From Marsupella aquatica (lineage: Eukaryota > Plantae > Marchantiophyta), in NCBI GenBank assembly GCA_973895155.1, contig OZ316893.1, forward strand, positions 15,096,645-15,160,644: a DNA stretch of 64,000 nt, written 5' to 3'. The translations under genes and the position numbers were made by a program. Under the pieces are notes generated by a model. The model did not search any database and was not told the origin of the DNA. It saw only the letters and a program-made list of their open reading frames with translations. Positions 20,915-48,070 of the stretch are shown here, piece after piece (position 1 is the stretch's first letter; every line of letters begins with the position of its first letter).

Positions 20915-23900
20915 CTCTCCAGTAGTCTAGCCTCAACCTTAACCTTGACTAACTTGTGCTCCAGTTAACCTAACCAGGTGCTAGAGTTAAGTACCAATAC
21001 TTATGTCCTAATTATAGTGTGCGATATAATGTCCCCAAAGGCGAGAGCTTTAGCTTGAGTTTTGAGAGGCTAATATTGTCCATAACGTTCTGGAACTAGA
21101 CCTTAGTACCCTCAAAAGGCCTAAGAGATTTTTAGTTTTACTAATTTGAGTAAAAGTAGAGGAGAATCTTCCCAAGAGGTGATCCAAATCTTGACCTGCA
21201 TTCTTCCCCAAGAAAGAACTGAAAAATACAAAAGGAAAAAGTACAGAGCGCATTAAGTGTTCCATATTCCTACTATAGCTAATGAGTTGTGGTTGGAATC
21301 ATTCTGTAAGGGGGTGTTGCATTGTACACTTACCCAGCAACAAACACAGGAAAGTGTGTCATATTGCCTCCCAAATCCAGTTCCCCTGGAAAATACCCTA
21401 TGCCCTGAAAATTCTATCAGCTGGGACATAAAAGGCAGTCCAAATAGATCCTGTCATGACAAAAAAATTACCTCGCCAGTCAAGTGACTTAGCTTCCAAA
21501 AGGTTTGCAAACAAAATCAAATAGCAACCAATACATAACTCATCGTAGAAACAGAGTAAATGGACCCTGCTAATGTTAGTAGCAGAGGCAAGCTTGCTGA
21601 GCCTCGCTTGGCTAATTTTAGGAGAGTACCAAATGATGTCCGGCTAAATCTGGCAGTGAACAAGTTTGGGGGACACTGTTCCAAAAATTAGTTGCGCAAG
21701 GATTCAGTTAGTGCTTAGTTTGGGGGACAGGAAAATAAGAACGATTTACAAAGTTGAAAAAGAAAGTAATATACTCCACTTGAAATGCTCACCTTGTAGT
21801 ATACTATTGTTTGCATGGACCCACACTGCTGTTCATCAACACAGAGTTCATGACTACTTCTTTTGGGAGATATCGTCAAAGTCCTCACCTGCTAGATGCA
21901 AGTTATGTGAGATCCTTCATTAGGGCACATGAACCTTGATTGACTCTCATCCAGAATATCAAGGGCCATGTTGAGATAGCCCAAATAATGCAGATTGACT
22001 GCAGAATGCAGGCCGCAGTTTGGAAATGGCTAGAGGGAGGTCTAGATTCATTTTCTTCCATTCCTCTTAGAGCATTTACCAGTATGGAAATGGCATTTAC
22101 CACCCAAAAGGGAACTCTAGAGTGCCCCACAATCACCAAAGCTGGTTCCTGGCCCCAGCAAAATTTCTACCTGGGCCTGCAATCATGGGCTCCTGAAGCT
22201 GGAAATTGAGGCCTGAAATTGGGTCTAAATATTGGACTCTCTATGGTCTCTCACAGCCACAAGTCAATATGTTTCCAGACACGTACAAAATGAAGCAATT
22301 CCTAGCATGGTTGGTGGGTGTGGGTTAAAATCCCATCCGACTAAACCCTTTCCCTGCCCGCCTGGCATTTTAAAGGTCCCGGTAATCTGCCTGATGCCAG
22401 CCGTGGATAGCAGGCATGCAGGGGACTGCTCTTACTATGCCGGTGCAGTGGTGTGAGTTTGTGTAACTTGAGTAGCAAGGGATTGTTGGTTACCTCTCTA
22501 CTGATGGTAACATGACCGTGTAGCTTAGCCCATGAGTGTTTGTCCCCTGCGTGAAATATGCTGTTTCTCCCGTTGCATTTTACTGTTTAGTAAACCAAGG
22601 TTTCAACATATACATAAGAAATCAGAGAGTAGTTTCCTTCTCTTATACAAGTTGCCTTATAAACTATTCTGTGTAACCTCTACTATTGCCATGTGGTTGC
22701 TCATTTCAAATAGTGTATGAAAGAGTTTTCTAGTATCGATGTCATCTCATAGGTCACCATAGGGAAAAACAACATCTTAAGATAGTTCATACTTTTTAAG
22801 AAATCACCAAAAAATGCTTTTAGACTATGAGGGTCATGTGATTGGAAGTGAGTGGGCAAGCCTACAGGGTAGCTCCACTGTTCACCTTGGCAAATGAGGG
22901 TGGCCGGTTTGCGTTTCTGTCTTGAACTACTGTTCATCTTGGCAAATGAAGGTGACTGGTTTGTGAATGGAAGTGAGGAAGAACACTTAGTAGACTCTCT
23001 CCAGCCGAATAGTGACATACATTTGTTGTATGAAACCCATTTCAGGGTGCCCACAATTCGGACAGGGACCCACACCAGGTGGGAGAAAGGATTATAGCAG
23101 GGCCACAAAGTGAACAACTAGTGACCAAGAAGATAATCAGAACTCCTTCCACTACCCACAACACCCATCCCACCCACGAATATATATCTTCCATATCCCT
23201 GTGTTGAGGGAGGATTGAACCTGGGACTTCTTAGTTCCAAGCTAGTCCCCTAACCAACTTACCTAAGCCATTTGATTAAGGAGGCAGGTTTGCAGTGACA
23301 AACTTTTACAACTTATTTGCTTGAAGAGACCATTGCAAAAGAATATTTTAAATTTTGATCATAAGAACTCCAAATATTCCCTAAATCAGGAGGCTACTCG
23401 CCAAATCTACGAGTTCAGTTTAAATTCGAAGACAATCAAATGATAACTAATACATGTGCCGAATTACCTGCTTCCAAACCTCACACGGAGTAAGAAATCC
23501 GCTGTGACCCGGTGAGAGACGTCCACTTGCCGGTTGTCCATCGGATCCAGTACGCTATATGGAACTGTATAATAATATTTCATACTCTTGTTACACGTAG
23601 ACAGATTACAGTACTGTAGTTAGTGCGGAAAGCCTGTGTTCTGCCGAATTTCCCCGTGCAAACAAAGAACAGGGGAGGATGCTCTGGACGCCAGGAAGAT
23701 TCTCTGGGCGACTGCATCATGCCATCGTGTAACCCCCCGCCCCATATGTATGCATGTTGGGTGGGTGGGGGCACCCTTTCCGATCATCCATCCATCCATC
23801 CATCGACATGAGTCATCATGTCGGCGCACCCATGACAAGACTGATGTAGTGATGTCGATGCAGGGCCCACACCAATGTGTGTAATGCCCGATTAGAGGTG

Positions 23901-25260: not shown

Positions 25261-26645
25261 GGGGATGCAAGGTGAGTCTCTGAAAATGCTGTAGTGGACT
25301 TGAATGTCCTCACCTTTGTTGTAATAGTATGTTCAAAAAGTGGGACCAAGCTAGTGATAAGAGAATGGAAAAGCTACGCCAAAAATTGATTGATGGGCAA
25401 CCACTGGGCATCACATGTGAGAAGCCTAACCTGAACATACCACCAGCGGGTCACTTTGACCCTTGGTCAGAATTTTCTAAGCACTTTAAGCAGTTTGGTC
25501 CGAATTCAAATTGTTCCACTATGGCTAATGGAAGTGCATCCAAGATACTCAAATGCTGTTAGAATCAAGCTCAAGGTTCATTCCTTGTTAATGGATGCTA
25601 CAGTGTTTTGTCAGATTGAGCATTAACTACCTGTAAACGCTCCTGCTTTGTATAAAAGATAGTACTGGACCAGAATCTTTTCTGAAAAATAAAAGGCAGC
25701 CAATCCTTCTTGTATTGGTTAAAAATCATGTGAGCAACATTGAGCATAGCTATTGGCCTTTAGATAGCTGGGCCACCTTCTTTGTAGAGCAGGACAATGA
25801 TCCCATTTTGTCAAGTCAAATGGCATACGACTTCCCACATTCCTGGTCAAAAAGGCTTTGTGCAACATAGGGCCCGCTATGTCCCAATTATTGACAAATC
25901 ATTCTCGTGGGACCATGTCTTAGCCTTGTACGCCCCTGGTAATCACACATCAAAATGTGGTTGCATTCATTGATTAAAAAAATAATAATAATATTATCAC
26001 TGTATGTATGCAGGGTGTCGTACATAATATTTGTCATATTTTGATGTACAGTTACCTAGACCCCTTGTACTCTACCTCAATGTAATAGCATTAATATTGT
26101 CTACCCTACCCTACCTCTATTTATTATTATTACACAAATGTCAAAACGCCACTTAATGAAGAACACTACGAGCATTTTAAAATTTCAACCAGACGAGCAT
26201 TAAAATTTCTTAGGAACAGAGAGGTCACAGTATAATTCAAGTTTTAGTAAAATTAAGGGCGTAGGCCTGAAACTTTACTCCATGAGATCAAGGTAAACTA
26301 GAAACCATCACCACACCAGGTCAGAACGACAGTACACGGAGGTAGGATATTAGGACTGAACATAATGTAGTGCTCATGTGACTAATAATTTGATATGAAA
26401 GTTACACTCTGGAGCCTATTGTCGATAGTGAAGCCTGGACAATGTGACTCTTGGGTGCTAGCAACTTTAGGGGTTCAGCAACAAGTGATGAGCCTGAGCA
26501 AAGCTTCGATGGTCAGGCTAGTAATCAGTGTAGTGGCATAAGTTGAATTCAGCATTGCTTGACAAACCAGAGGTCACCATATTATTAGGGTGTTCAACCC
26601 AGTTGTTTCAGTGGAGGTTTTATGAGACCAGAATGCTGCAAGCTG

Positions 26646-27003
26646 TGTCATGCCAAGGGACAGTGCCTCTTATGCACATCGGCATGTCCCTCGCCTGCCC
26701 GCTAGGTATGTAGTTAGGGTTAGTGTACTACCTGAGTTAGCGACATGTTCTTGTAGCAAGTCTGGGCCGTTCTTGAAGCAAATGTGCTTGTTAGTGTGAC
26801 GCCAGGACTTTGCTTGCTTAGGGCATGTCTTTCTTTGTGGGTTTTCAGTTCTTCTTGAATCGCTGTCGACAGAGCTCAAACAGTGCTCGTCGGTTCCGTA
26901 CACGGGATTCACACAGTGATTCGTTAGATGCTCCCGGCCGATCTTGGCATCCCGCCGGTTTTTGATTCGATTTCAGTACACTTGTTTCTATCATGCCTTT
27001 TAT
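26646..27003 (+). repeat. Split direct repeat A1 (358 bp)
   Basis: Matches 42494-42851 with 8 substitutions and no indels by manual comparison. Confidence 0.95.
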
Positions 27004-28687
27004 TCAAGAAGAACTGCTGAGTTGCCGGCGAGGGGAAGAAGGTAGGAGACATTCTTGTCTCAGCTGCTTATGTCGGTCCAGACAATTCCCGTCGAAGTCG
27101 GTGCAATTTCTTTGAGCAACAATGGAGGGACGGGTTGAAATTATGAGTTTAATGTCGCGTTATGTGTAAGTATACACATAAAGCTTCTATTGGAACCCAA
27201 ATTTTCCTTCCCAGGTGTGTCCGCGATCCCTTCCGTTGAATGTTGCCTCCGTCGATTGCCGGCCGTAGCATGACCTACTTCCGACTGCCATTCGACTGCC
27301 GCGAAGTGGAGGCGACTTGCTGCTGATTGACATACGCGAGGCCGTTTTTTGGTGTTTCCCGGCCAATTTCTCTCCTTTTTCCATTCTGTTCAGGCAGCTC
27401 CCGTCGCGAGCTGTTTCCTGGCCGCGACCCCTTTTCTTTACTTGGCAGCTGCCGTCGCGAGCTGCCTCCTAGTCCTGCCGTTGCCCTACCTGCAGCCTGA
27501 GTATACACATGTGGGGCTCATCAATGCCCAAAGCCGCGCATAGGGCTGTGCGCCCTCCCTTCGCTCCTCCTTACTCACATAGGGGGGGTCCCGTTTTTCT
27601 TTCGCCTCCCCCTCGCCTCGTTTTAGCCTCGACCTTCCGTTGCCAGCATTAAGAGAGGGGGGGAGTACAGACTCCCTTCTCTTGGGAGTAGATTTTCGCA
27701 CAAGGAGGGAGAGGGCACGAGGCCCTATGAAGCATTAAAAGCAGGGGGAGGGGAAGTTGAGCACAACCTATCAAGCCAGGGGGAAGCGAGTGCCAATAGA
27801 GGGCTCGAGGCCCTAGGCAACATTAAAGCAAGGGGGAGGGGGAGTCGAAGCAGCAGCGCAAGGAGTGGGCACGAGGCCCTAAGCAACATTAAGGAGGGGT
27901 GGGGGAGTTAGTCGCTCCCTTCTCTTCGGGAGCACATCAGGAGTTAGGAGGGGGCGCGAAGCCCTATGCAGGGCCCAAGCCATTGATTGAATCACAGTGG
28001 TTTGTGCATAGGCTGTCTTAATTGGGGCCCCATTTCTTTTCTTTCGCTGCGCTCTCGCCTCGCTTCCTCGCTTCGCCGCGCCTTTTCCTCCTTAATTAAG
28101 TGCTCCGCAGCCTGTACGTACATAGGGTCTCGTCACTTTTCCAGTGTGCTTGATACTTCCCGGGTCCACATCGGGGCCCGATGTATACACTTAACCGAGC
28201 CCCATGTTTGTACATTTGCAAGGGCCCCATGTATACACTTAAGGGGGGCCCAGGTTTACGTTTTTAAGGGCCCATTTTTTTGGATTTCTTTGTTGCCGCA
28301 ACGTGTCATCTGCATAAAGCTGAGGGCCCGGCATATTCATCAGACAGTCAATCCAGCAAGCATAACACCAGTACAATTGGAGTTTTTAAGGGTCTTTTCT
28401 TTGCTGACGGCTTTTCTATGTCTTTTCTTTGCTACGAGCCAGGAGGTAGCAGCACATCGCCACTGACACCCACGTACCATTTACGGAGTGATCCACGACC
28501 ATTGGTGCCAATTTCATTGGAGTCTCGGCAATTTTGATGACGTCCACAGATTGCAGCAGCACCCACACCACGCAATCCTTCTGCTCAATTTGGCGGTCGC
28601 TTCACTACTAACCCGAAGCCTGCTATCACTTCCTTGCCATTTACCCCTTCTGCATCAGTGGTTGTTCCAGCTTCACCGACATACAGC

Positions 28688-31500
28688 ATGGATGCTAGCC
28701 ACTCATCTGGCCGCATTGAGCGCTTCAGCGGGCGGCCAGGCACTATTTCTTTACGTGAGTTCAAATCCACTTTCTACACTGTCATTTATGAATTGGAGTT
28801 GAAGTACGGCAGCAATTTCACAAATGCTTTTGCATTTAAGCAGCTAGCCAGGTATGTGCACCACGAGGCTTTGGATGTGTATGAGCAGCACTCTCAACGG
28901 CTGCTTGCTATCACACAATTGCCTAACCCTGCCTATGCCAGTGCAATTGCGGCTGCCTCACAATTGGCATTACAGAATGCCATTGCAGCCCATGCTGCTG
29001 CTCCTGCCACTTCCCCTCCTACTCCAGTTCCTACCACTGCGCCAGTTACTCCCACTATCTTGGCACAGGCTACATCAGGCATTTCTCCCACCATTGATTC
29101 CTCTGCCTTTGCTGATCCAGTGGCTGAGTTTTTCCAGGTTCTTGAATTAGAATTCCCTATCAAGAGTGCTGACAAAATCATGCAGTTGGCCACCTTTATG
29201 AGGCAGCGCAATGAAACATTGAAGATGATGTATTGCCGGCTTCTCAAGCTGAAGGAGGACACCCAGAGCATCACTAACCTGGAAGCTGCTCATCGCTATC
29301 TTCGCGCATTGGAGGGCACTCCAACTCTCCATTCGCAAGTGTTGCAGCAAGTATTCTCAGAGTTTGGAGACAACTACACCCTGCTCAATGTCTATGACAC
29401 TGCTGAGAAACTTGAGTTGGCCCATGCACATTATGAGGCCAGTATTGCACGTCCACCGCGATCCAGGTACCAGGCTGCTGCCCCTACACTGGCCACCCCT
29501 TCCCGTGTGCCACAGTATGGTTCCAAGACCAAGCCAGCCCATGCTGCTTTCATGCTGCCATCTTGCAACTACTGTGGTAACCCCAATCACAAGGCTAATG
29601 ACTGTGATATTGTTGCTGAGGACCTGTCTTGTGATTTTTGCGGAAAAGTGGGTCACTTGGAGGCAGTTTTGCCAAATTCCCAGAGAGGAAGCAGCTACGA
29701 CAGCAGGCCCCTCCTCCTGCTCCTGCTTCCACTCCCCCACCAGCTAGGAGGGCTCCTACTGCATCAACTGCTCCTCCTTCCAGTGGCAAAGCATCCAGTG
29801 CCAACAAACCGCCCAAGCAACAACAGAAGCAACCAGTTCAGAAGGAAGCTCACAACGCACAGGCAACTCAACTCCAGTCTCTGACTCATGAGGTTGAGTC
29901 CCTACGTGCCCAACTTGCGAACATCAAAGGCAAGTCAACTGCCTTTGCTGGTCCTTCTCAACCGGCTGGTCACGTGCAACCCATCCCTGGCCCAGGCACC
30001 ACTGACAGTTCAGCACCTCTACCCCGCTCTTTCTATGGCTTGCCATTTGATGCTCATATGGGTGAGTGTGTGCTGTCCTCTGCTCCACAGCCTGGCCTTA
30101 CAGCAGAATTTTCAGATTCATTCTGCCCTTCCTATTTTGCTTACCAGCAGGCTAGTGCTGCTTCCTATACTACTCCCACCCACCGCATTGTACAGGCTGA
30201 TGGTCTTGCTGTTGGTCCTCTGACTAGAGCCAGGGGAGCTCGGGCTGTCATGCCCCAATCCTTTCAGCCACTCACACTTGCTGAAGAGCGCACCTTGTTT
30301 GCGAGGGGGGAGGGAGCTGCAGCTACATCCATTCCACCACCAGGTGCTGCTGACATTTCACAGGGAGTTGTTTCTCCTGAGCTGCTTGAGCATTTCACCT
30401 CCGGTATGGCACAAAGGATTCTTACAACTCCACTTTTCAGTTGCCATGATTTACAACTGGATGCTAGAGCTGTCATCAGAACGCTAGAGGGCTCACTGCA
30501 TTCTTCATCAGCCCTTGTGACACCGGTTTTGGAGGTCCAATCTCATGTACATACTAGATCTTCTTCTTCTCCATTACATGCTTCCACTGGTTTGGCTATC
30601 CCAGTACCAATTTCCAGTGGTAGAGATGACAGTATTGCTGCAGATTGTGTGACCAGAGCTACACTGGATTCTGGTCATGCTGCTCCATCTTTCCTGACTA
30701 TGCTATTGAGTGGAAAGATCGTGGATACTAACTCCCTTCACAAGGTACCTCATCATTTGCCAAAAGTGGTGCCTAGCGACAGGACTTCAGTTTCCACCAC
30801 CATTGCCATTGTTGACAACAGGAATTCAGCGGTCAAGTTGGAGGGTCACACTCCTCAGGTGGTCATGCTGGACATAGGCGCTCAACCAGTGATATTGGGC
30901 ATTCAGTTTGCCAAGAAGATAGGACTGCTGACTGATCATTTACAACAATCCAGGTGGCACATTCGGACTGCTAGTGGCACTGTGGAGGATGTGCTGGGTG
31001 AGAGTTCTACTTTACTCACTCTCACTTTTAATGGAGGTACAGATCAGGAATTGCATTTCCCAGTCAGATGTTTGGTTACCAATGCCACTACGTATGATGT
31101 GCTCATTGGCCAGGAGGCTTTATTCCCACCAGGTTTTACCATTGACAATTGGCATGAGCATGCATACTACAAAGTTGATTGGCATACGAATGGCTCACAC
31201 TTGGGCTACATTCCACTTGATTTGCATGGTGCCCATACACCTATGGCTCACCACTGTGTGTTGCAAGCAGTGCACACAGCTACCTATGTCAACCACCCAT
31301 TGCAGGATTGGATTGAGGAGGATGATGATGAGGTGGCTACTGCACATGCTGCTGCACATATAGCAGCACTTTCCAGCAACGTGGATCATCAACCAGAGGT
31401 GGTACAACGGCTCCAAGCAGCCCATGGACCTTTGGTGGCTGCATTGCACAAATTTGAGGATCTTGGGCAGCACAATGGCCAACCAATAGCCCCAATCTTG
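28688..31500 (+). pseudogene. Gag (two zinc knuckles) and aspartic protease of the methyltransferase element
   Basis: IERFSG...LREFK Gag-like start. Knuckles CNYCGNPNHKANDC and CDFCGKVGHLEAV, then a frameshift at about 29668. Protease VMLDIGAQPVILG (D at 30871) and YDVLIGQE. Confidence 0.85.
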
Positions 31501-31529
31501 AGCGCACCAATTACATGGACTCCTACTCC

Positions 31530-32500
31530 GGATGGCCTTACATTGCTTGAGCTTTTTGGTGGCATTTCTACAGGCCTGGAAGCTCTCCTATAGTCTGGCA
31601 TGGTGGTGAAGCAGTACATCTATGTGGATATTGATCCAGGTGCAAGGCAAGTGGCTGAATCCCGTCTGCTGGAATTTTCAGAGCGATTTCGTCAGCAGTT
31701 TCCACACAGTGCATAGAAGTCTGCATTTTCTTTCTTTCCTCCAGATATCCAGCTTGTCCAGTACCGGCACTTAACCCTTCTTGGCTCCCTTGATTTGATC
31801 ATAGCTGGTTGGGAATGCCAAGGGTTTTCAGTTGCTGGTCACGGTGCTGGACTGCATGATTCTCGTTCTGGCCTTTTCACAGCATTGGTTCAGATTCTCA
31901 CCTGGGCTCAATCCCTTTATCCTACTGTTGGTTATATCATTGAGAATACTCCATCTCAGTTTGACCAGCGTCCACAGGTCAAAGAGGATTTCAGTGTGGT
32001 CCAGCACTACTTGGGACCACCCCTTCTCATTGATGCAGTGCACTGTGGTTCTTATGCACATCGTCTTCGTAACTTTTGGACTAACCTTGCACCACCTTCC
32101 TTGTTGGAGTTAGCTCTTCACCACACATCCAGGGACACTAACCTCACAGTGGACCAGATTTTGGATCCTGACAGTTCTTGCCAACCGGTTACACGGCAAG
32201 AGCCAGCACCTTGGTATCCAGCTAATACTATTGGACAGCCCCGTGCTGCTTGGCCTACATTTGTGTCCTTTCCAGGTGCACATGCTTTTCAGGGTGATGG
32301 TCCTGGCCTAGTTTATCGACATTCTACCGGTACATGGGATGAACCTAGTCCTGAGGAGAGAGAACGGGCTATGGGCTTCCAACCCGGTACTACAGGTCAC
32401 ACCAAAATCACCAGGCTGGCCAGGAATGCTTTACTTGGCAGGGTAATGGATCTTAATGCTCTCACTTGGCTTCTGGTCACTTGCATCCTTTTTCAGATGT
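31530..32500 (+). pseudogene. DNMT3-like C5 cytosine DNA methyltransferase domain inside pol
   Basis: Motif I LELFGGI, motif II YVDID, motif IV DLIIAGWECQGFS, SGLF, motif VI YIIENT, motif VIII AHRLRNFWTNL, motif IX ERERAMGF, motif X RNALLGR. All in one frame continuous with the protease, with in-frame TAG stops at 31591 and 31714. Confidence 0.92.
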
Positions 32501-34104
32501 ACATTCATCCAGCATCAGGAGTTCCAGCCCTACCACTCCATGGTGCTGCTACATGGCATCCAGACTGTTGGGTATTTACTCTTACGTCTAGGTTAGGTAT
32601 GACGTGGTTGGTACAACTACGTGGGTTGGTACAACTACGTGGTTAGGTACAACTACGTGATTAGGTACAACTATGTGGTTAGGTACAACTAAGTTGCACA
32701 CTATATCATAAGAGGCATGTGTGCTTGGAGAGGTAGAACCAAGGCTCATTGTTATGGAGCCACTCGAGAGATAGGGAGAGCTTACACTGTGGAGACTCGG
32801 TATAGCCGACGGGCTTAGAGTTCAGTAAAGCTCTCTTGTGTGTTCCCGTGGACGTAGCCTCAAGGAGGTGAACCACGTATCTCTTGTGTCGACTATTGTG
32901 CGTTGGATGGTTCATGGGCTTGCCGTTGCGATCGTCGTCTATGCTAAACAATTGGTATCAGAGCATGCTTGGGAGGTGACGTGTGTTCGTGACGGGATTT
33001 CATGACGGTTTTTCCAGCGTTGAGTGTTGGTGGATTTTCCAGAGTTCCATCGCATGGAACTTGGAGTTTATGGGCTCAACGGATAGATCAGGGCAAGAGC
33101 TTTCTAACGGTGTGAAGAAATCGTTGAACGGAGCTCGTGGTGCAGAGAGATCTAAGTTTTCGTCGTTCTGGATTTTGTGAAGAAAGTTGGCAATCGACTC
33201 GGAGGGAGAAGCGTCAAGTGTTTTGACTCAACGGAGAGATTGAGGCAAGACGATTGTTTTTGAGTCCGGGATTGGCTCTTTGATGCAAAGAGGAAGGCTA
33301 AGCAAAATCAATTACCTTGTTGGACTTGGTGACGGCACCAAGTGCAATTGATCAACATTCGTTGTTGACAAGGTACCATTTTTTTCTCTTTGAAAAACTG
33401 ATTCGAAATTGGCTATGGCAATTGAGAGAAATCTGTCATCTTTACCAATTTTTTTCTCCCTCGTTCTTTCCTCGTTTTGGGTGCTTCTTATATCGATCTT
33501 CATCGCCTCGGAGTCTAGTTTCCAAATCTGAAATCGGATCTTGATTTCGTCAAAACCCGAGTGAGATATCTTGCGTTTGGTGTCGAGGGGTACATTCTGC
33601 CGTGTGTATTTTCTGCGCGCGCGACCAGATTTCGACGACGAAGGGTGGTAGGGGGTTTTGGGGGTTCGAGGACACATGTCAGCCCCTCGATTGTTCTTCC
33701 AAAATTCCCACAGGGCCTGTACAAGGGTCATAGAATATTCCAAAAAACTAGAGAGCTATTTTTTGACCGTCCGACAAAGATTTCATCCGCCGAACGGTAA
33801 CTTTTTTGGTTATTTTTCGGCGAGGTCGTAGCCATTGAAGTTGGCAATGCAGCGCACCAATCACATCGCAATTCCGACAACGGGTTGTACTTGGTATTTC
33901 GGTTATTCCCTGAGGTGGTCAAAACGGGGGAGTTTCCCAAGGTTTTACCCACCTCGACCGAAATTTGAATAACTTTTCCGTCAAATTTCAATTTTGATTT
34001 TGGTTTTCAGTATTGGACTCCTAGCTTTGTGGGCTACGCGGCGGTGTTGAGTTTCGAGTTTTTTGAGAAGTTGTGAAAAACAACATTTTTTGTGACTTTC
34101 TCAT

Positions 34105-35139
34105 ATGAGTGATTCGGAGGAGTTTTTCGAAGACGTGGAACTTGAAGCACGAGGATCACCGCGGAGGTTTCAGGGGCAGAGAGAGGAGCAGGAGGAAGAG
34201 CACGTGACACCGATACCATCACTGGTGCGGCGTGTGGTGGAGGAAGCAGTACTACTACCGGAGCTCACGGTAAAGAAGAAGATGGGGACTTTCAAGCTTG
34301 GGGGACCCAAGTATGAAGTGACAAAGTATGATGGGCGCTCTGACTACTTGCTATGGGAGAAGCAGGTGAAGGGAGTGCTTTATGCGTCAGGGATGGGCCA
34401 ACTGCTGAGCCCTCGTGAAGACGATGTTGATGAGAAACAATGGGACCGCATGCAGGAGCAGGGAGTGTGGTGTGTTACACTCTATCTCATGCCTCCCATC
34501 ATCAAGCAGTTAGGTGCACATAAGGATTGCATGTCCTTGTTTGCGGAATTGCAGAGCAAGTATCACCGCAAGGAGTTGTCGAACCGGCTCTACACTTCCT
34601 ACAAACTGATGAGTTTCAGGATGAAGGAATCTGGTACGAAGTTGCAAGACCATGTGGATGCTTTCAACGACATGGTCGTTGACTTGGAAAACCTTGGGGA
34701 GACTTTGAATGATGAGACGAAGGCTCTGCAGCTTCTTAGTTCATTGCCTCCATCTTACCAGTCCCTATCACGAGTGTTGTTGCATCGTGATAGGGATACC
34801 ATTTCATACAATGACGTCGTAAGTTCTCTGCTTAGTGATGATCTTCAGCAGAAGATGCACATCACGTCACAGCCTTCATCATCTGGTGCTGCCCTCAATG
34901 TTAATCGTGGGAGGAGTATGCAGCGACCAACTGGGGACCGTAGAACCCAGTTTAGATCTAAATCCAGATCTAAGTCCAAGGGTAAATCCCCTCAGAGGAG
35001 GCAGGTGACATGTTGGAAGTGCAACCAAGTTGGACACTTCAAGCGAGACTGTAAGGGAAAGACAGCGGAAACTTCATCGGCAAATGTGGCTAGGGCTGAT
35101 GGAGAAGCTGATTTACTCAATGATGAGTATGTTTTATGA
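34105..35139 (+). CDS. Copia Gag
   Basis: KYDGRSDYLLW, LLSSLPPSY and zinc knuckle CWKCNQVGHFKRDC. Confidence 0.92.
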   Translation: MSDSEEFFEDVELEARGSPRRFQGQREEQEEEHVTPIPSLVRRVVEEAVLLPELTVKKKMGTFKLGGPKYEVTKYDGRSDYLLWEKQVKGVLYASGMGQLLSPREDDVDEKQWDRMQEQGVWCVTLYLMPPIIKQLGAHKDCMSLFAELQSKYHRKELSNRLYTSYKLMSFRMKESGTKLQDHVDAFNDMVVDLENLGETLNDETKALQLLSSLPPSYQSLSRVLLHRDRDTISYNDVVSSLLSDDLQQKMHITSQPSSSGAALNVNRGRSMQRPTGDRRTQFRSKSRSKSKGKSPQRRQVTCWKCNQVGHFKRDCKGKTAETSSANVARADGEADLLNDEYVL

Positions 35140-38100
35140 AGCCGGGGGTATGCCCTGTGCACGTCATCTAGGAGAGCAGATGATGTGTGGATTCTTGATT
35201 GTGCTTGCTCTTTTCATATTTGTTACATTCGTGAGTTTTTCAGTTCTTACTCTGTTTCAAACGGTTCAGTTCTGATGGGAAATGATCACTCCTGTCAAAT
35301 TGAGGGAATTGGGTCTGTGAAGATTCAAATGTTTGATGGCGCTGTGCGCACAGTGTCCGGAGTCAGGTATGTACCTGGCATGCGTAAAAATCTGATTTCA
35401 CTCGGTGTGTTGGATTCAAATGGTCATCAATGGAGCGTTATTGATGGTGAACTTCAAGTCAGGTCGGGAGAGACAGTGATTTTGAAGGGGAGTAGACAAA
35501 AGAATTTGTATGTGTTACAGGGCAATACTGTATGTGGAGAGGCCAATGTAACCAAGTCTCACGAGGAGATGACTCAACTGTGGCATTCACGGCTAGGCCA
35601 CATGAGTGAGAAGGGTTTGGCTATCTTACGGAAGAATGGACTCATTTCTGATTTGCAATCTTGTAAATTCGAGTTTTGTGAGCATTGCATTCTTGGAAAG
35701 CAGCATCGTCGTGCTTTTGGTGTTGGAACTCATCGTTCCAAAGCGGTTCTTGAGTACATACATAGTGACGTGTGGGGTCCATCCCCGACTCCCTCACACT
35801 CTGGAAAGTTGTACTATGTATCATTTATTGATGATTACTCAAGATTTGTGTGGATTTATTTCATGACGCATAAGTCTGATGTCTTGTCCATTTTTAAGAA
35901 GTGGAAGGCCCAGGTGGAGAATCAGACTGGAAACATGATCAAGTGTTTGGATACAAGGGTGAAGAGTCTGAGGTCAGACAATGGCGGGGAGTACACTTCA
36001 ATGGAATTTGAAGAGTACTGTTCAGAACAGGGGATAACTCGCCATCTCACCACAGTTTATACTCCGCAGCAGAATGGTGTCGCTGAGAGGCTCAATCGGA
36101 CATTGTTGGAGCGGTCACGGAGTATGTTGAGCCAATCAGGTTTACCACAAGAATTTTGGGCAGAAGCTGTCAATACCGCAGCTTATTTGGTAAATCTTTC
36201 TCCTTCTAGTGCTATCAATTTCAAAACGCCGTTTGAGATGCGCTATAAGCGGCAAGCAGACTATCATGGCTTGGTAATTTTTGGAAGTGATGCATATGCT
36301 CTCACACCAAAGCAGAATAGGACCAAGTTGGATCCTACCTCCAGGAAATGTGTTTTTCTTGGGTACCAGAGTGGTGTGAAAGCCTATAGGCTATGGGATC
36401 CTATTGCCTGTAAGCACGTTGTCAGTAGGGATGTTTCCTTCAATGAATCCAGATTATTGAAGGAGGGGGAGAATACTCAGGTCTCCCGTACTGACAAAGG
36501 AAAATCTCATATCCCGGATCTCGTTGAGGGGGAGATTGGTTATGAGGTGCATGACCGGAGAGAAGGAGTTGCTCCAATTATGGAGCTGGTTCCTGTGCCA
36601 GAGGAACCAGAGGAGTTTGTTGATGCTGGTGAGCAACAAGTGGATGCTGTTGAGCTTCAAATTGTACCAGCACACGCAGATCAACCGGAGTCATCGGCTA
36701 GAAGAACATCTGATCGCACTGTACGCGCTCCATCAAGGTATGGACAGTGGGTTGATTCATCTCAACTGCAAGAGGATGATTTTACAGCTGATGATGAGGG
36801 TGATGCGTTAATTTTGGAAGAAGGAGAACCTTCTTCATTTCATGAGGCAAGTGCTTCAAAAGAGAAGCAGAAGTGGACTGCAGCAATGCAAACGGAGATG
36901 CAGTCACTAAAGGACAACAAAACTTGGGAGCTTGTTAAGCTGCCTAAGGGTCAGCAAGTGGTGGACAGCAAGTGGATTTACAAGCTGAAGGATAATTCCA
37001 TAGGAGGTGGATCGAAGGTCTACAAGGCTAGATTGGTAGCAAAGGGATTCACACAAGAGAAAGGTGTGGATTACAATGAGGTCTTCTCACCAGTTGCTAA
37101 GTACTCTACAATACGACTATTGTGTGTACTTGTTGTAATGTTTGGTCTGCTCCTAGATCAGATGGATGTTGTCACAGCTTTCCTCTATGGCACATTGGAA
37201 GAGGTGATCTTCATGAGACAACCGCTAGGTTTTGTGAAGAGAGGACAGGAGGAATTGGTTTGCAGATTGCTGAAATCCTTGTATGGGTTGAAGCAGTCAC
37301 CAAGACAGTGGAACAAGCGGTTTGACGATTGGATTCGGTCACAAGGTTTTCATAGAAGTGTATTTGACCCTTGTGTGTATTTGAAACCGGTGAAGAATGT
37401 TGTCTTTGGGTTCATTGTTTTAGTACTTTATGTGGATGACATGCTAATTGCAGCCAAGGATAGGTCTGAGATTGTTAAGCTCAAGGCACTGCTTAGTGCA
37501 GAGTTTAAGATGAAGGACTTAGGGCCAGCTAAGAGGATTTTGGGTATGGAGATCACTAGGGACTTGGAGGCTGGCAAGCTATGGTTGACGCAGAGCAGTT
37601 ATGCAAGGAAGGTAATTGCAAGGTTCAACATGGAGAATAGCAAGCCAGTAAGTACCCCGTTGGCTCCACACTTCAAGTTATCATCAGCGTTCTGTCCTAC
37701 GGATGACACAGAGAAGGGGTTGATGTCAAAGGTTCCATATGACAAGGCAGTGGGGAGTCTCATGTATTTGATGACTTGCACTAGACCTGATCTTGCCATG
37801 GCTATGGGCAAGGTGAGCAGGTACATGTCGAATTCAGGGAAGGTACACTGGGAAGCAGTGAAGTGGATTATCAGGTACTTGAAGGGTACCGTGGATCATG
37901 GTCTTTTATTTGATGCGAATGCAAAGAATGCTAGATCATTGATTGGCTATGTAGATTCTGACTATGGACAAGATTTGGACCAAAGGAGATCAACAACAGG
38001 ATACGTGTTCACACTTGGCGGTGGATGCATAAGTTGGAGGTCTACTTTGCAGAAGTGTATTGCTCAGTCTACTACAGAAGCGGAGTATGTTGCAGCTGCG

Positions 38101-38412
38101 GAAGCAGCAAAGGAAGCGATTTGGTTGGATAGACTTATCACCGAAATGGGATTGCCATAGGGGAATGTGAAGCTCCATTGTGATAGTCAAAGTGCGCTCC
38201 ACCTTGCTGTGAACCAGGTGATGGACAGCAGAGTGAAGCACATTGACGTCAGGTACCATTTTATCAGGCAGACTGTGTCTGATAATTTGTTTGAGCTAGT
38301 CAAGATTGATGGTAAACTCAACCCGGCTGACGCATTTACCAAAGTGATTCCTTTGGAGAGTTTCTCTAGACACCGTGACGTATTGCAGGTTTTGCAATTG
38401 CATCACAAGTAG
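35140..38412 (+). pseudogene. Copia Pol (protease, GAG-pre-integrase, integrase, RT, RNase H), same frame as Gag; one in-frame TAG at 38158
   Basis: WILDCACSFH, WHSRLGH, IHSDVWGP, LRSDNGGEY, QNGVAER, QMDVVTAFL, LYGLKQSPRQW, LYVDDML, YVDSDY, KHIDVRYHF. Confidence 0.93.
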
Positions 38413-39029
38413 AGTTTTCTTAAACATTCATTGTAATTACTGATATATGCTCTTCCTCATTCCTATGTATTAGGCTACGGCTTAGTTCTGGTTTGCTCTA
38501 GTTAGAGAGGGAAACCGGTTTGGTTTCTGTCCAGAACTTCCCGCTGAGGGATCATATACATTGGCAGTATTACTCTCCCCTAGACCAGAGTCAAGGGGAA
38601 GATTGTTGGGTATTTACTCTTACGTCTAGGTTAGGTATGACGTGGTTGGTACAACAACGTGGGTTGGTACAACTACGTGGTTAGATACAACTACGTGATT
38701 AGGTACAACTATGTGGTTAGGTACAACTACGTGATTAGGTACAACTATGTGGTTAGGTACAACTAAGTTGCACACTATATCATAAGAGGCATGTGTGCTT
38801 GGAGAGGTAGAACCAAGGCTCATTGTTATGGAGCCACTCGAGAGATAGGGAGAGCTTACACTGTGGAGACTCGGTATAGCCGACGGGCTTAGAGTTCAGT
38901 AAAGCTCTCTTGTGTGTTCCCGTGGACGTAGCCTCAAGGAGGTGAACCACGTATCTCTTGTGTCGACTATTGTGCGTTGGATGGTTCATGGGCTTGCCGT
39001 TGCGATCGTCGTCTATGCTCAACACAGAC

Positions 39030-42000
39030 CAGGTGCACTTACCTCTGTCCAACACTCACCACTTCAGTCCAAGTGTTGGGGGGGAGGAGGTCCCTTGTAA
39101 TGTGGCTGACATTATTTCTGAGTTTCATGGTGTGGATCAGACCAGAGCAACAGATACAGCAGGCCTTGGAGAGGCCTCATCACCTTATCAACAGCATGCT
39201 AGCAGCTTGGACAGTGGAGAGGCTGGCACTTCTGGTTCTTCAAGCACGAGTACATCAGGTCCTTTTCCTAGTGTTGCCAACTACACATTCATCATGGGCA
39301 ACCACCTGAGTAAAAGACAGAAGGACCAGCTGCTGAATTTGCTCCTCAAGCATGAGAACGTGTTTGCTTTCTCTATGAAGGACTTGGGTAAGTGCAAGAC
39401 TATGCAGTTCTCCATTGAGTTGGCTGATGAAACACCTATCTTCAGGCGGAGACACCGTTTGAGTAAGCATGAGTGGCAACTGGTGGATGAGAGATGCCAA
39501 GAGCTCTATGAAGTTGGTCTTATTCAGCCCTCTACATCAGATTTTGCAGCAGCTACAGTGATGCCAGCAAAGAAGGATTCCAGTGGATTGTGGACAGAGA
39601 AGCGCATGTGTGGGGACTACAGGCCATTGAACCTGGTCACACCCCAGGACAGGTACCCCATGCCACGGCCAGAGGAGCTATTTGACAGCATTGGAGACTC
39701 AGACATCTTCACTCTTGTGGATCTAAGGCAAGGCTTTAACCAGATTTTGCTGCTTGCAAAGGACCACAAGAAAACAGCTTTCCATGGTAGTAACCAACTA
39801 TGGGAGTGGTTGGTGATGCCATTTGGCTTGAAGAATGCGCCCATATTCTTTCAAAGAGTCATGGACCAGGTTCTTCAAGGTGCTGAGTTTCTGAAATGCT
39901 ACATTGATGATGTGTTGGTCCACAGCAAAAGATTTGACCAACATCTACTTGACCTTGAGGAGCTATTCATGAGGCTTAAGAAGGTGAACCTAAAGATACA
40001 CCCCAAGAAGTGTGAATTTGCTGTCAGATCAGTAGTATACCTTGGGCACCGCATTCTTCCAAATGGAACCATGGCTCACTGGGCCAAGGTGGTATCCATC
40101 TTGGAAATGCCCACTCCGACTGATGTTCACACTCTTAGGAGCTTTATTGGGTTGTGCAATTACTACCGGATCTACATCAAAGATTTTAGTACCATTGCAC
40201 ATCCATTGTACTCTTTGTTGAAAAAGAATGTGACTTGGACATGGAGTACAGATGCTGAGGCAGCATTTGCCACTTTGAAGGAGAAGCTCTCAGAATACCC
40301 GGTGCTGAGAAGACCTGATTTCAGCAAGGTCTTTGTGCTACACACAGATTGGAGTGCCCTTGGGATTGGTGCCATTCTGGGCCAGCATGATGAAGAAGGT
40401 AAAGAGTACGTCATTGCCTATGCATCCAGGAGCAACAATCAGGCAGAGAGTCATTATTCTTCTTATGAGGGTGAATGCCTTGCTGTTGTGTGGGCTGTCA
40501 TACATTACAGGCCCTACCTCTATGGGACCAGGTTTACTCTCTACACCGACCACCAGCCCTTGAAGTGGTTGATGACTAACGACAAGCTTACTGGCAAGCT
40601 TGCTCGTTGGGCACTCATCCTCCAGGAGTATGACTTTGAGGTAATTCATAGGCCTGGTTTGACACATCAGAATGCTGACACTATGTCCCGCAACCCTTTG
40701 ATTACCTCTGATGATTCCTCAGATGCACGGCAAGATTTTGACCAGGTTTCCATCCTGCCTACATTTCATGCATCGACTATCTTGCTTTGCTGCCATGCTA
40801 TGTTGTTGACCAACCTGTGGTGGACATATGGGAGGACAGCAACACTCTGAGATTTCTGCAGCATGGGGAGTACCCCACACATGTTACTACTGCCCAGAGA
40901 GACCGAATTCAGCAAAGGTCCAAGCGCTACTTGTGGAAGGGAGATCATCTCGTGCGCTGCTTGCCAGACAGGGAAGTGGTGGTTCCACCCATTCATGAGA
41001 GGGTTGGCCTTATTCGTAAGGTACATTCTAAGCTTGGTCATTTTGGCGTTAAGAGGACTTACAGCCTCTTGGTCCCTCATTATCATTGGAGAGGCATGCA
41101 TGGCCAGGTTCGAGATGTTATTGCCCGGTGTGAGCAGTGTGATAGGGTAAGGACTTCTTTCACGTCTCGGCAACCCACACTTCACCCACTGCCTATTCAG
41201 GGCATGTTTTATCGTTGGTCATGTGATTTGGCTGGAGAATTGCCCCTCACATCTCGGGGTAATCTCTACATCATGATCATGATAGAGCATTTCTCCAAGT
41301 GGATAGAACTTGTGGCATTGCCGGATAAAACCTCCCGTAGCACCAGCCAGGCATTCCTACAACAAGTTCTCAGCCGCTTTGGAGCTTGTGCAGAATGTCT
41401 CACTGACCAGGGCTCAGAGTTTAGAGGAGAGTTCCAGGAGCTGCTTGATCAGGCCCTCATTGATCATCGCCGGACATCACGAGATCACCCACAGGCAGAT
41501 GGCTTGGCAGAGCGCATGGTTCAGACATGCAAGAAGGGCCTCCGGAAGATCTGCCTCACCAAAAACAAGGAGGATTGGGACCTGGCCTTACCCTACATTG
41601 CCATGGGGTATAGGATGTCCAGACATGCATCACTGTCTAACTTTTCTCCCTACTTCTTGTTGTTTGGTCGTCACCCAGTTCCACCTTCTGCTATTGTTGC
41701 TCACATGCTTCAGGTGGTGGACTTGGATTCAGCTGTGACTTGGTCTGATGTGATCTCTGAGAGGGCTGCCCTATTCAGGAGGGTTATGCCCATGGCCATG
41801 GAGAATTTGGCCATTGCACAGCACAGGGACACATTGCGTTATGCACACACACGAGGGGGCACTTTTCAGCCCAAGGTCAGGAAGTTTGATGTGGGAGATT
41901 TTGTGTACTTACAGCGGCAAGCTAACGACACCCTGGACACCTGTACCAGTCATACTATTCTCAGGGTTAAAGCTATTCGACCGTCTGGAGTGCTAGAGTT

Positions 42001-42276
42001 ACAAGGGGCAGATGGGCGCACAATTGCTGACAATGCCAAGAATTGCGCCCCTTGTCATCTGCCTAACCTAGATCCCACCATTGTGACTTCTACTTGGATT
42101 CCACCTGTGGACTACCCTTGCAAGGTGTGTTTGCGATGCGAATTGATGATGCTGACCAGATGCTGCTGTGTGACAATTGCAATGGAGGGTACCATCTTTT
42201 CTGCCTTCGGCCTGAACTTACCCAGGTGCCAGAAGGGTTATGGTTTTGCCCTTCTTGTGCTCCACGTGCTACCTGA
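39030..42276 (+). pseudogene. RT, RNase H, DDE integrase and PHD finger of the methyltransferase element
   Basis: RT: RMCGDYRPLN, MPFGLKNAP, YIDD. RNase H: LHTDWS, YEGECLA, TDHQPL, NADTMSR. Frameshift at about 40775. Integrase: H..LGHFG...CEQC, WSCDL, TDQGSEF, GLAER. PHD: CKVC...CDNC...HLFC...WFCPSC. Confidence 0.95.
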
Positions 42277-42315
42277 ATTTTCTTCAGCCCTCCTTTTGGC
42301 TGTGGTCTGGGGGGG

Positions 42316-42491
42316 ATACAGAGGTTTACACCTCCACTACGTACATACCACTTCATTTGCTTTTTCTTGGCACTTGTGAATGTGATTGGACTTTTTCTAT
42401 GCATGTTGGTTGCTAGCAGCTTGCACATATGCCTTGCCGGTGACTTGTATGTTTTCGATACACTATGGCTATGATACTATATGTCACGACA
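42316..42491 (+). repeat. Split direct repeat B1 (176 bp), preceded by a G7 tract (42309-42315)
   Basis: Matches 42852-43027 with 2 substitutions. Confidence 0.95.
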
Positions 42492-42493
42492 GC

Positions 42494-42851
42494 TGTCATG
42501 CCGAGGGACAGTGCCTCTTATGCACATCGGCATGTCCCTCGCCTGCCCGCTAGGTATGTAGTTAGGGCTAGTGTACTACCTGAGTTAGCGACATGTTCTT
42601 GTAGCAAGTCTGGGCCGTTCTTGAAGCAAATGTGCTTGTTAGTGTGACGCCAGGACTTTGCTTGCTTAGGGCATGTCTTTCTTTGTGGGTTTTTAGTTCT
42701 TCTTGAATCGCTGTCGACAGAGCTCAGACAGTGCTCGTCGGTTCTGTACACGGGATTCACATAGTGATTCGTTAGATGCTCCCGGCCGATCTTGGCATCC
42801 CGCCGGTTTTTGATTCGATTTCAGTACATTTGTTTCTATCACGCCTTTTAT
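42494..42851 (+). repeat. Split direct repeat A2
   Basis: Copy of 26646-27003, separated from B1 by the dinucleotide GC. Confidence 0.95.
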
Positions 42852-43027
42852 ATACAGAGGTTTACACCTCCACTACGTACATACCACTTCATTTGCTTTT
42901 TCTTGGCACTTGTGAATGTGATTGGACTTTTTCTATGCATGTTGGTTGCTAGCAACTTGCACATATGCCTTGCCGGTGACTTGTATGTTTTCGATACACT
43001 ATGGCTACGATACTATATGTCACGACA
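42852..43027 (+). repeat. Split direct repeat B2 (3' end of the element)
   Basis: Copy of 42316-42491, ends CACGACA and is followed by GCTG. Confidence 0.95.
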
Positions 43028-43376
43028 GCTGGGTTGTAGGCCAGACATCTGTTGCTTGAATGCTGTATTCAACATCCAACAAGTACTCAAGGTGCAATAA
43101 ATTGAGAAGTTTGTGTGCTTGTGTTGGATGCTATGGACCCTCGCGTGGCCATCAATGAGAGGATAACGGTGCCTCATCATTCCCCCTCCCTTCTGTGCCT
43201 CGTCATCAATTCCCTCCCTCCCTCGCGAATGCTCCCCCCATGCCTCAGTCAGTCCATCCCCTCCCCTCTGTGCCTCATCATTCCCTCCCTCCCTCGTGAA
43301 TCCCCTCGATCTTAGCAATTCTCTCCCTCCCTTCATTTCGCCAATGCTCCCTCCGATATGGGCCAGCTCTCCTTGC

Positions 43377-44995: not shown

Positions 44996-45355
44996 TGTTT
45001 GAGCAAAAAATCTCTATTCATAAGACAACATGCACATGTGCAACATCCAATGAACACACAAGTGGCTCACAAACTAAGGAGATATATGGTTCACCTCTCT
45101 AGGGGTTATGTCCATAAGAACACACAAGACAATTGTACTGAATTCTAGGTCCACTACCAATTCTGAGTCTAGCTCCACAAACTAAGTTCTCCTAATCTTT
45201 CAACTGCTCTATAACAATAAGTATAAGTTCCCCTCATTAGTAAGTCCTAGTGAATGTAATAGTAGCACATCTCTAAGTTTAACCAAATATGTAATTATAA
45301 TTAGACTAACCATGATTATATTATAATTTTAGACCTAAGAGTAAATGCCTAATAA
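44996..45355 (-). mobile_element. Degraded LTR of the same Copia-related group
   Basis: gagata.atggttcacctc, aacacacaag and agagtaaatgcctaata resemble the solo LTRs at 9244 and 10782. Confidence 0.55.
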
Positions 45356-45688: not shown

Positions 45689-46584
45689 ATCTATACTCAG
45701 CTACACTGAGACCTCTATAGGAAGACTTTTGAGTTCTATCTCTTATATAGATATTTGAATATGATATTGACTGAGAATGCTTATAGATCACGTGTTCAAA
45801 ATGGCCAGTTGTTTAGTGATCAATGAACTTTTGATTTACTATATGGGGCCTTACTCTATATGTTCTTGTCAGTTGAAATTAGGAGCTCTCCCATTAAATT
45901 TATTTCAGAAATTTAATTTACAGGTTTTGGTAGTTTCAGAATTTTCTATTTGTTAAGGCTTAAACAGGGGACCTCATGTCGACAACCTCCTGAAACTGGC
46001 ACAAGTAGACAAGCATTGATCCAAACACCTCAATAGCACCCTCCAGTGATGATAAAATCTCGATGGTTGGAGTGCCTCCACAAAACGCTAACCTCCCAGA
46101 ACTGACAATAGGAGATGAGAAATGAATGATCCACACACTCAAAATTAAAAGTTTGAGTCACGATAAAATTTTGAAAATCTGCCAACCCCCTCATCAACCC
46201 CTTCTGTCAAGGGAAAATTTTACAAACCTACACAAATTGTACTAATAATGATGGACAAACCCACTCTAATGTAAGGGAGGATCCTCGAAAGCCTATAATC
46301 ATCATCTGAAGATATAATTTATTATTGGCTGAACTTTAAGTTCAACTTTGTGGTGTGGGCCCAAATTTTTTCTAAAGTTTTTGCGCATCTATCCTCCAAT
46401 ATACAGTATACTATCATCAATGCGTCTCTTAGTGTATACTTCAATGGCTTCCTCAAACAGTCATACTCTATTCTCACGGACTTTCAATGCGCTTTCCCTT
46501 TTTTTTCCCCTGGTACTTTATTCTCTCCAACTTCCAATGTGTTTGTTTTTTCATCTTTCTTTTTTAATTTCTTTTTAATTTGGA

Positions 46585-48070
46585 TGAAATGGGTGACCTG
46601 GGACACTCTTTCCAAAGGGCTCAATAAGAGGGGCGACCCTTTTTAAGGGTCCTTTTTCTCTGGGAGCATTCCATTTTTTTTTAATTTATTTTCTTGGGGT
46701 GAAATGGAGGTATATGCTTGATGGGACCCCTGCCAAAAGAAATTTAGTTGATAGGCCCTTATGAAACTTTTATTACAAACTAGGCCCCTTCTGGCACTTT
46801 TGTGTCAGATATTCTTGTAAAGTTCCTATAAAGGAGTTTAGCTTGATATTGTCACCAATAAGAGCTACTATAAAGTTTAGAGTCAAACCATGCTTAATGA
46901 CAAACTACATCGTTGGGCGAACCTCGGAGTAATGGCGACCGTCGCTTGCATTGTGACTTCCTAAGTGAAGACAATATGGGTCATGTCTTTAGGTTTAAAT
47001 TTCATCTTTAGGTTATTTCATGGAACCTATCCACAGGGTTTGCATGATGTTTCGACGTTTTTCTTTGTTCTTTTGTCTAAGTATGGAATGAATCTTCTAT
47101 TTTTGGCCATATATTCTATTCCCGTCCCTATTGCAACCTTTAAATTGTCTTCTCACATCTAGACCCCAAATTTGTCTAAGTATGGAAGGAACCAAGGGTC
47201 TTGTACTCTTTGGTGTTTTCACTTGTTGCAACCCCGGTTGCAACTCTAAAAAATTGTCTAAGTGTGAAACAAAGACACCATGGACTCAATCATAACGGGA
47301 AAATTTTGCTAGCCTGCACGAAAGCTTGCAATAACTAGACTAAATGTTTAGACTAAATATTGTACAAACCCACTATGATCCTATAGCGATGGATCCCTTA
47401 AAACTCCATAATTATGTGAAGACATAATTCATTATGTCTTCAAACATAGAAGTACTCTATAATCATGTGACATACGCGCAGTGGACTATGATGCAAATAA
47501 TGTGCGGTGAATTGTGATATGAAATGTACGATTTACCATGCATTTAGGCACCACATAAGAACCATGTGTACGGAACCTATCTAGGGGGCCTTGTTGGTAA
47601 CAACATTTTTGTGAGGGGTCTAGTTTGTCACAAAAGTTTAGTAGGGGCCTTTCATGTAAATTTGTTTTGGCAAGGGTCCCATCAAACATATACCTCGGGT
47701 GCACTGGGTCACCTGGAAGAGGGACGACTCTTTTAAAGGGGCTAAATAAGAGGGGAGGAATAAAAAAGGAGGGGAGTATTATTGTTAAGAATTAAGAAAT
47801 TTTATTCTTTACCTGGGACACCCTTTCCAAGGGGCTCAATAAGAGGGGTGACTCTTTTTAAGGGGCCTTTTTGTGTGGGAGCATTCCATTAATTTTTATT
47901 TCTTTTCTTTGGGTGAAATGGGTCACTTGGAAGAGGGACGACTCTTTTAAAGGGGCTAAATAAGAGGGGAGGGTTAAAAAAGGAGGGGAGTAATATTGTT
48001 AAGAAATTAAGAAATTTTATTCTTCACCCGGAAGAGTGACTACTATTTTGAAGGGGCTAAATAAGAGCAT
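46585..48070. repeat. Dispersed and tandem subrepeats, probably an old non-autonomous element
   Basis: ggggct(c/a)aataagagggg and actcttttaaagggg blocks at about 46600, 47710, 47820, 47930 and 48040. Confidence 0.6.

Follow-up and report, generated by a model that had tools for sequence, protein, structure and literature searches.

Split repeats in the order A1-open reading frames (ORFs)-B1-A2-B2 define the PAT-like and Ngaro retrotransposons (PMC4157794). In this study, we analysed a stretch of 64,000 nucleotides from the liverwort Marsupella aquatica (contig OZ316893.1, positions 15,096,645 to 15,160,644, forward strand), referred to as a whole as the window, which carries at 26646-43027 a Gypsy element with the same repeat order. 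The window element is unlike PAT and Ngaro in that it has no tyrosine recombinase but a DDE integrase, a polypurine tract (PPT), a primer-binding site (PBS) and a 4-bp target-site duplication (TSD).

The initial annotation of this locus knew of no description of such a combination, but it is already on record. The legend to Fig. 4c of de Mendoza 2018 (PMC5890265) describes KnitGypsy-Dnmt3 of Klebsormidium nitens as having repeats as in DIRS and domains typical of Gypsy, and curated Chlamydomonas consensus sequences have the combination as well (PMC9940879). With KnitGypsy-Dnmt3 the window element shares a Gypsy pol with a C5 methylase and the DIRS-like repeat order, although the former belongs to an alga and the latter to a land plant. 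For KnitGypsy-Dnmt3, neither a PBS, PPT, joint or TSD nor a mechanism is mentioned in the available part of PMC5890265, and the name was not met outside that paper in the literature searched. K. nitens proteins with integrase and PHD finger are 47-57% identical to the window integrase, and K. nitens integrases fall with it into a 26-row clade (SH-aLRT 97, quick unrooted tree); these proteins could not be traced to the KnitGypsy-Dnmt3 copies of the paper. K. nitens-named proteins are absent from the methylase matches, both from all 84 of one listing and from the best 120 of 253 of another. The curated elements Gypsy-14a_cRei, Gypsy-22_cRei and Gypsy-3_cInc have in common with the window element the arrangement A...PPT-B-GC-A-B and a GACAGCTGTC joint (PMC9940879), whereas B measures 8 to ~55 nt in the Chlamydomonas elements and 176 nt in the window. 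Gypsy-7a_cRei, which is laboratory-active and has a TGG-type PBS, appears to share the repeat layout. The window element is a land-plant member of the kind recorded in one figure legend and a curated algal library; this study adds its signals, the statistics of its copies and a connection with an element that is active in the laboratory. No mechanism for split-repeat Gypsy elements was found in the literature searched, which was mostly judged from listings, with Repbase and subscription papers outside the search; REM1 was met there in passing mentions only.

Two further systems bear on the question of how such an element might replicate. A PBS located just after the 5' repeat is shared with Tf1/sushi and plant Tcn1 elements, in which it is complementary to the first RNA bases (PMC7175516, PMC6317226), as is probable for the window element. 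These have two complete long terminal repeats (LTRs) with terminal integrase ends, whereas the repeats of the window element are split, and plant Tcn1 mostly have chromodomains where the window element has a PHD finger. The REXdb paper reports self-priming for Tcn1 and TAR and mentions neither PHD nor Klebsormidium. HIV-1 integration complexes cleave two-LTR circles at the palindromic junction and integrate them (PMC4372172). The likeness lies in a DDE enzyme cutting abutted ends in a palindromic joint; the HIV-1 reaction is, however, a back-up route at a joint made by ligation, whereas the joint of the window element is encoded in its LTR and would serve every cycle.

Repeats of the window copy

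The window copy has the order A1-ORFs-B1-GC-A2-B2. A1 and A2 differ at 8 of 358 positions and B1 and B2 at 2 of 176, both pairs aligning without gaps, and two nucleotides, GC (42492-42493), stand between B1 and A2. The outer ends read TGTCATG...CACGACA, with GCTG on both sides. The repeat features are as follows.

26642-26645, plus strand: left 4-bp TSD GCTG (sequence comparison)
26646-27003, plus strand: repeat A1, equal to A2; its start TGTCATG is the left integrase end, and unrelated flanks stop at 26646 in four of four public runs
42316-42491, plus strand: repeat B1, equal to B2; end CACGACA
42485-42500, no strand: joint CACGACA-GC-TGTCATG, both integrase ends abutting over a 2-nt spacer (relatives)
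42494-42851, plus strand: repeat A2, equal to A1
42852-43027, plus strand: repeat B2; its end CACGACA is the right integrase end, and its join with A2 varies between copies
43028-43031, plus strand: right 4-bp TSD GCTG (sequence comparison)

Two complete identical terminal LTRs are lacking; since the 5' end carries A alone, this is not a canonical LTR element, but a split-repeat kind of Gypsy element. The copy is damaged by stops, frameshifts and a nested Copia element, and as the latter fills 32567-39024 (6.46 kb), the element proper accounts for only ~9.9 kb of the 16.4 kb.

Recurrence of the layout

Four public runs were compared with 41700-42860 and 26250-27300; all of this material consists of assembled contigs, and depth was not taken as copy number. 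In three of the four runs, many contigs with unrelated flanks stop at 42491 and begin at 42494, and A leads on to the internal sequence that is found at 27004. The A-to-B joint 42851-42316 is likewise present in three runs. Among the matches listed, one contig bridges B1-GC-A2 and contigs also span PPT-B1, while a PPT-to-A joint is not found among those listed in the four runs over 41700-42860. Unrelated flanks meet 26646 in all four runs, one contig, in a run that may come from the source of the window, is identical across the left junction of the element, and contigs of runs X1 and X3 that depart from the window at 26645 fit an empty allele. Misassembly of the window copy is unlikely.

The layout also recurs in a metagenome, of which the best 80 of 545 relatives were used. 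Subtraction of 10 duplicates with a shared flank and of 14 loci whose 3' end was cut or interrupted left 56, whose 3' ends read B-NN-A-B in 27 and B alone in 29. Among the 19 distinct full-length relatives, 10 have the form A..B-A-B and 9 the form A..B, and AB at the 5' end occurs in none, B standing neither before nor after A1; B follows the 5' A in 0 of 20 loci, and in no locus among the relatives does A come directly after the PPT. The 4-bp TSD is exact in 10 of the 19 and has one mismatch in 6, compared with 0 exact and 18 one-mismatch cases among 342 non-cognate end pairs. These relatives probably come from a moss, given Sphagnum-named proteins that resemble theirs at up to 83-86%, and the window A and B can be aligned with the metagenome copies only over 22 nt at the end of B. 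Solo A-B units lie near other copies (L039, 6131-6610; L077, 6060-6526).

More distant are eight contigs filed under bacterial or archaeal genomes (L082-L089), with integrases 40-54% identical to that of the window; they are likely contamination of algal origin. Scans of viral contigs gave no relatives, only a phage-like contig in which one motif matched by chance and nine weak matches of insertion sequence (IS)-like type.

We conclude that the split layout is a family architecture and not the accident of a single copy. The repeat coordinates, outer ends and GCTG duplication described in the initial annotation agree with the sequence, and its reading of 42316-43027 is supported by public-run contigs that span the junctions. 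It had proposed looking for independent copies with A...B-A-B order and differing 4-bp TSDs, and such copies exist, 10 of the 19 relatives having this order; it had also named ordinary AB...AB copies as the opposing case, of which the 20 loci with a 5' A contain none.

The internal joint and the A-B join

The core of the joint is the palindrome GACA-GC-TGTC. Its spacer is 2 nt long in all 27 copies with B-NN-A-B, without a single indel, and most variants depart from GC by one or two transitions. All six of the distant contigs that are long enough have a G-run, 56-240 nt of B and GACA-GC-TG; the other two end too early. Of the 11 GACAGCTGTC sites in the part of the Chlamydomonas library that was examined by eye (PMC9940879, supplement), 9 are preceded by a G-run at B distance, and the three curated families named above are entered there as A...B-GC-A-B. 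The internal part of Gypsy-7a_cRei, for which the entry preceding the 7b header was taken as the end of Gypsy-7a_I, closes with a purine run followed by 8 nt and GC, and the LTR ends with the identical 8 nt. This element made 86 new insertions in one laboratory strain (long-read assembly of CC-4532), and according to the legend to Fig. 6 its left LTR lacks the final 8 bp (PMC9940879). Internal entries of Gypsy-2a, -2b, -3, -10a, -10b and -11_cRei, filed as ordinary LTR elements, appear to end in ACAGC, and the visible LTR ends carry the same few preceding bases. Judged by these entries, the layout with a short B may be widespread in the Gypsy families of Chlamydomonas.

In contrast to the joint, the join between A and B is variable. 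By our reading, its length differs from blunt in 14 of 27 copies, whereas the joint is constant in length in all 27 (Fisher 1e-5), and the variants comprise losses, AT overlaps and extra letters matching the PBS or PPT. Variant joins are also seen in public runs (from 42706, 42801 and 42810), and these, like that of L017, have lost tens to hundreds of bases. A single contig of run X1 passes from A into B at 42706, where the self-primer described below is predicted to have its 3' end. On the 56-copy tree, join type does not cluster (10 changes, 9.3 when shuffled). The B2 of L049 starts after a different purine-rich site, 137 nt upstream, and takes in the PPT, as would be expected if B2 marks the plus-strand start. 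B2 is nearer to the B1 of the same copy than to the B2 of other copies (0.116 vs 0.139, p 0.004, L019 and L054 left out). Taken together, the A-B join looks newly made.

The one-B and two-B states are likewise unclustered on the 56-copy tree, with 19 label changes against 18.9 after shuffling, and A-internal-B as a separate lineage was rejected on this count. Gradual deletion between B1 and B2 after insertion is not favoured as the source of A-internal-B, which is about as frequent in younger copies (14 of 28) as in older ones (15 of 28; p 0.45 for branch lengths); in young copies, collapse during assembly could account for it.

Priming and polypurine signals

Three replication signals could be placed in the window copy.

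26846-26860, plus strand: predicted self-primer, likely the first RNA bases; 15/15 complementary to 27002-27016
27002-27016, plus strand: predicted self-priming PBS at the boundary of A1 and the internal part, not of the TGG tRNA type (complementarity)
42309-42315, plus strand: polypurine tract G7 directly before B1 (G-run in relatives)

The anchor was found in 53 of 56 related copies, and all of these have a G-run directly before B1 and then an ATAC-like start. The 15/15 pairing of self-primer and PBS was equalled in 0 of 300 shuffles, and 18 of 19 relatives pair at least 12 of 15 positions using primer/PBS pairs different from that of the window, with two compensating changes relative to it. 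The same number of relatives, 18 of 19, have a TATA-like box 31-34 nt upstream of the primer segment, from which we infer that the RNA starts there. Two of four testable distant contigs have differing and significant self-complementary pairs (13 nt in L082, 12 nt in L084), Gypsy-22_cRei and Gypsy-3_cInc each have a 15-nt self-complementary PBS by eye, and the leader of L049 folds on the primer/PBS duplex (z -5.3). Gypsy-7a_cRei combines a TGG-type PBS with an apparent split layout, and the layout is therefore not dependent on self-priming.

Priming of the window element thus appears to be free of tRNA, as the initial annotation had suspected. Its statement that a PBS is missing stands for the TGG tRNA type after A1, but a predicted self-complementary PBS is present at that place. 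The element keeps the cis-signals of Gypsy, a PPT and a predicted PBS of the Tf1 type, placed around a permuted LTR: with the PPT before B and the PBS after A, B-GC-A would act as the LTR during replication, and the TG/CA ends lie in the middle of this unit.

Coding content and classification

The element without its nested Copia was scanned with Pfam in six frames (12 in all, stops written as X), with matches to rve, Integrase_H2C2, RVT_1, RT_RNaseH, aspartyl protease, zf-CCHC, DNA_methylase and PHD, and none to a tyrosine recombinase. It had been noted at the outset that a recombinase is lacking and an HHCC/DDE integrase present; the scan upholds both, and the D, D and E residues could be placed. 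The domain order is gag-protease (PR)-C5 methylase-reverse transcriptase (RT)-RNase H (RH)-integrase (INT)-PHD.

28541-29884, plus strand: gag ORF, zinc knuckle at 29564-29605 (ORFs, motifs)
29635-31539, plus strand: gag-pol linker and aspartic protease, LDIGA at 30868 (ORFs, motifs)
31540-32566, plus strand: C5 cytosine methyltransferase domain (ELFGG, GWECQ, ENT) with two in-frame stops (PF00145, motifs)
39025-40850, plus strand: reverse transcriptase (YIDD at 39900) and RNase H (Ty3 RT match, E 7e-68)
40742-42130, plus strand: HHCC/DDE integrase, D 41225, D 41405, E 41510 (motifs)
42113-42260, plus strand: C-terminal PHD finger, frameshifted in the window copy (Pfam)

Among solved structures, the best relative of the RT is Ty3 RT (E 7e-68), followed by CaMV-type (4e-51) and retroviral enzymes (1e-24). 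The integrase has 34 residues between the second D and E and no GPY/F motif seen by eye, and its nearest named protein is from the liverwort Calypogeia fissa (86%). The PR-RT-RH-INT order with Gypsy-type RT and RNase H, the DDE integrase, the TG...CA ends, a TSD within 4-6 bp, a PBS (of the self type) after the 5' repeat and a PPT before the 3' repeat block are all found, and the element is a Gypsy element and very probably not a DIRS hybrid. Identity with Troyka was rejected, the TG...CA ends and 4-bp TSD standing against CG...CG ends and a 3-bp TSD in Troyka (PMC12440569).

The methylase (PF00145) is placed between PR and RT. Its motif IV (31807-31821) reads GWECQ and not PCQ, with the cysteine retained; in eight relatives viewed, ECQ and PCQ occur four times each. 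In the distant relatives L087 (3838-8334) and L088 (4901-9394) the methylase lies between RT and integrase, and the joint is unchanged.

Proposed mechanism and alternatives

The window element is a broken copy of a Gypsy element that is probably copied by ordinary LTR-type reverse transcription and probably integrated by cutting of the conserved palindromic joint inside its LTR. Standard reverse transcription is established for Gypsy elements. The RNA would start inside A, and pairing of its first ~13 nt with the PBS would prime the minus strand in the manner of Tf1. Strand transfers would then yield a linear complementary DNA (cDNA) of the form (B-GC-A)-internal-(B-GC-A), with ends that lack TG/CA. 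The end of A would be joined to the start of B either in a two-LTR circle or by repair after insertion. The DDE integrase would nick after CA on both strands of GACA-GC-TGTC, and the resulting CA-3'OH ends with 2-nt 5' overhangs would be inserted with a 4-bp stagger. Cutting at the joint adjacent to the PBS would give A-internal-B-GC-A-B, while one-LTR circles, or cutting at both joints, would give A-internal-B, which would be unable to supply its own strand transfer. The circle junctions of IS3 and IS30 are a parallel for DDE cutting at abutted ends.

Several observations weigh against this proposal. The mirror product A-B-GC-A-internal-B was found 0 times, against 10 of the observed form (binomial p 0.002), although a symmetric two-LTR circle predicts it equally often; a bias to the PBS-adjacent joint is therefore needed, and we postulate that preference for the joint nearest the left end of the cDNA would explain its absence. 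The TSD fails in L006, L030 and L060, and in L060 so does the self-complementarity, which in L088 and L089 is 9 nt and not significant (45 and 54 of 200 shuffles). By eye, no TATA-like box is seen in the A of the window element, and the leader of this element as a whole folds only slightly better than shuffled sequence (z -1.85). When the exact A1 of the same copy serves as reference, 3 of 10 A-B joins differ in length (p 0.21), and a copy's own B1 is the best match of its B2 in only 7 of 25 copies. As the copies are ~10% decayed, some junction variants may be later mutations.

The absence of the mirror product (0/19) is accounted for by an alternative in which the ends are completed by the RT: from the end of A the plus strand jumps to the minus-strand copy of B, synthesis of the two strands stops at one joint each, and the integrase trims 2 nt from linear ends with neither end-joining nor internal cutting. 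Template filling of this kind is the scheme described for PAT and Ngaro elements. It would suit a very short B, such as the apparent 8 bp of Gypsy-7a, template jumps would likewise leave variable joins, and there is microhomology between the starts of PBS and B (2 nt in the window, 7 nt in L082). We nevertheless think it unlikely, as two precise polymerase stops would be required at a joint with a short hairpin only, the strict 2-nt palindromic spacer is what staggered cleavage of a duplex joint requires, and the joins that have lost tens to hundreds of bases are at variance with it.

Very improbable, in our view, is a true DIRS/Ngaro hybrid that acquired its split repeats and copying route from a tyrosine-recombinase retrotransposon. 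Its repeat order is that of PAT and Ngaro (PMC4157794), and domain swaps between DIRS and Gypsy have been reported for DAM methylases (bioRxiv 10.64898/2026.05.21.726589). Against it stand the lack of a recombinase, the Gypsy domain order, Ty3 RT as best solved relative, and the presence of PPT, PBS, TG...CA ends and 4-bp TSDs. The hybrid replication system suggested in the initial annotation is not supported, a Gypsy PPT and a predicted Tf1-type PBS being retained around a permuted LTR. That the locus is a one-off rearrangement, a tandem solo LTR or a misassembly of an AB...AB Gypsy element is hardly credible: the window copy is indeed broken and carries a nested element, and its TSD GCTG happens to resemble the joint, but public runs, 27 distinct relatives from another host, distant contigs and curated algal consensus sequences all have these junctions, and none of the 20 loci with a 5' A has B after it.

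We are inclined, with somewhat less confidence than for the joint-cutting proposal itself, to extend that proposal to a green-lineage branch of Gypsy (bryophytes, Klebsormidium and chlorophytes), in which the integrase ends would have moved to the middle of the LTR and cutting of the joint in end-joined or circular cDNA would be obligatory. The accepted precursor of LTR elements and retroviruses is a linear cDNA with terminal integrase ends, circles being side products or a back-up. If integration by joint cutting is true, these elements would be a natural case of it, with an encoded joint conserved from bryophytes to Chlamydomonas; an LTR retroelement would work like a circle-junction IS element, and DIRS-like repeat order could arise without a recombinase. 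The apparent layout in the laboratory-active Gypsy-7a_cRei makes joint cutting testable. Split-repeat elements are very abundant in public runs of the host, and LTR finders that need paired LTRs are likely to miss or mis-date them.

Other features of the window

One further transposable element lies inside the split-repeat element and is foreign to its family.

32567-39024, plus strand: nested Ty1/copia element with two LTRs, 5-bp TSD CAGAC and TGGTATCAGAGC PBS

Between its two LTRs there are 5 mismatches and, within an 18-nt tandem array, one gap of 36 nt, and LTR-like relatives of it are found at 9241-9585, 10781-11123, 20702-20915, 45079-45231 and 60401-60481. Exons of a plant glycosyltransferase gene (GT2 match), which we take to be cellulose-synthase-like, extend over ~52800-55800, and the region upstream of this gene resembles 8704-9025 in inverted orientation. 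Long imperfect inverted repeats with subrepeats at 46550-48100 are possibly a non-autonomous DNA transposon.

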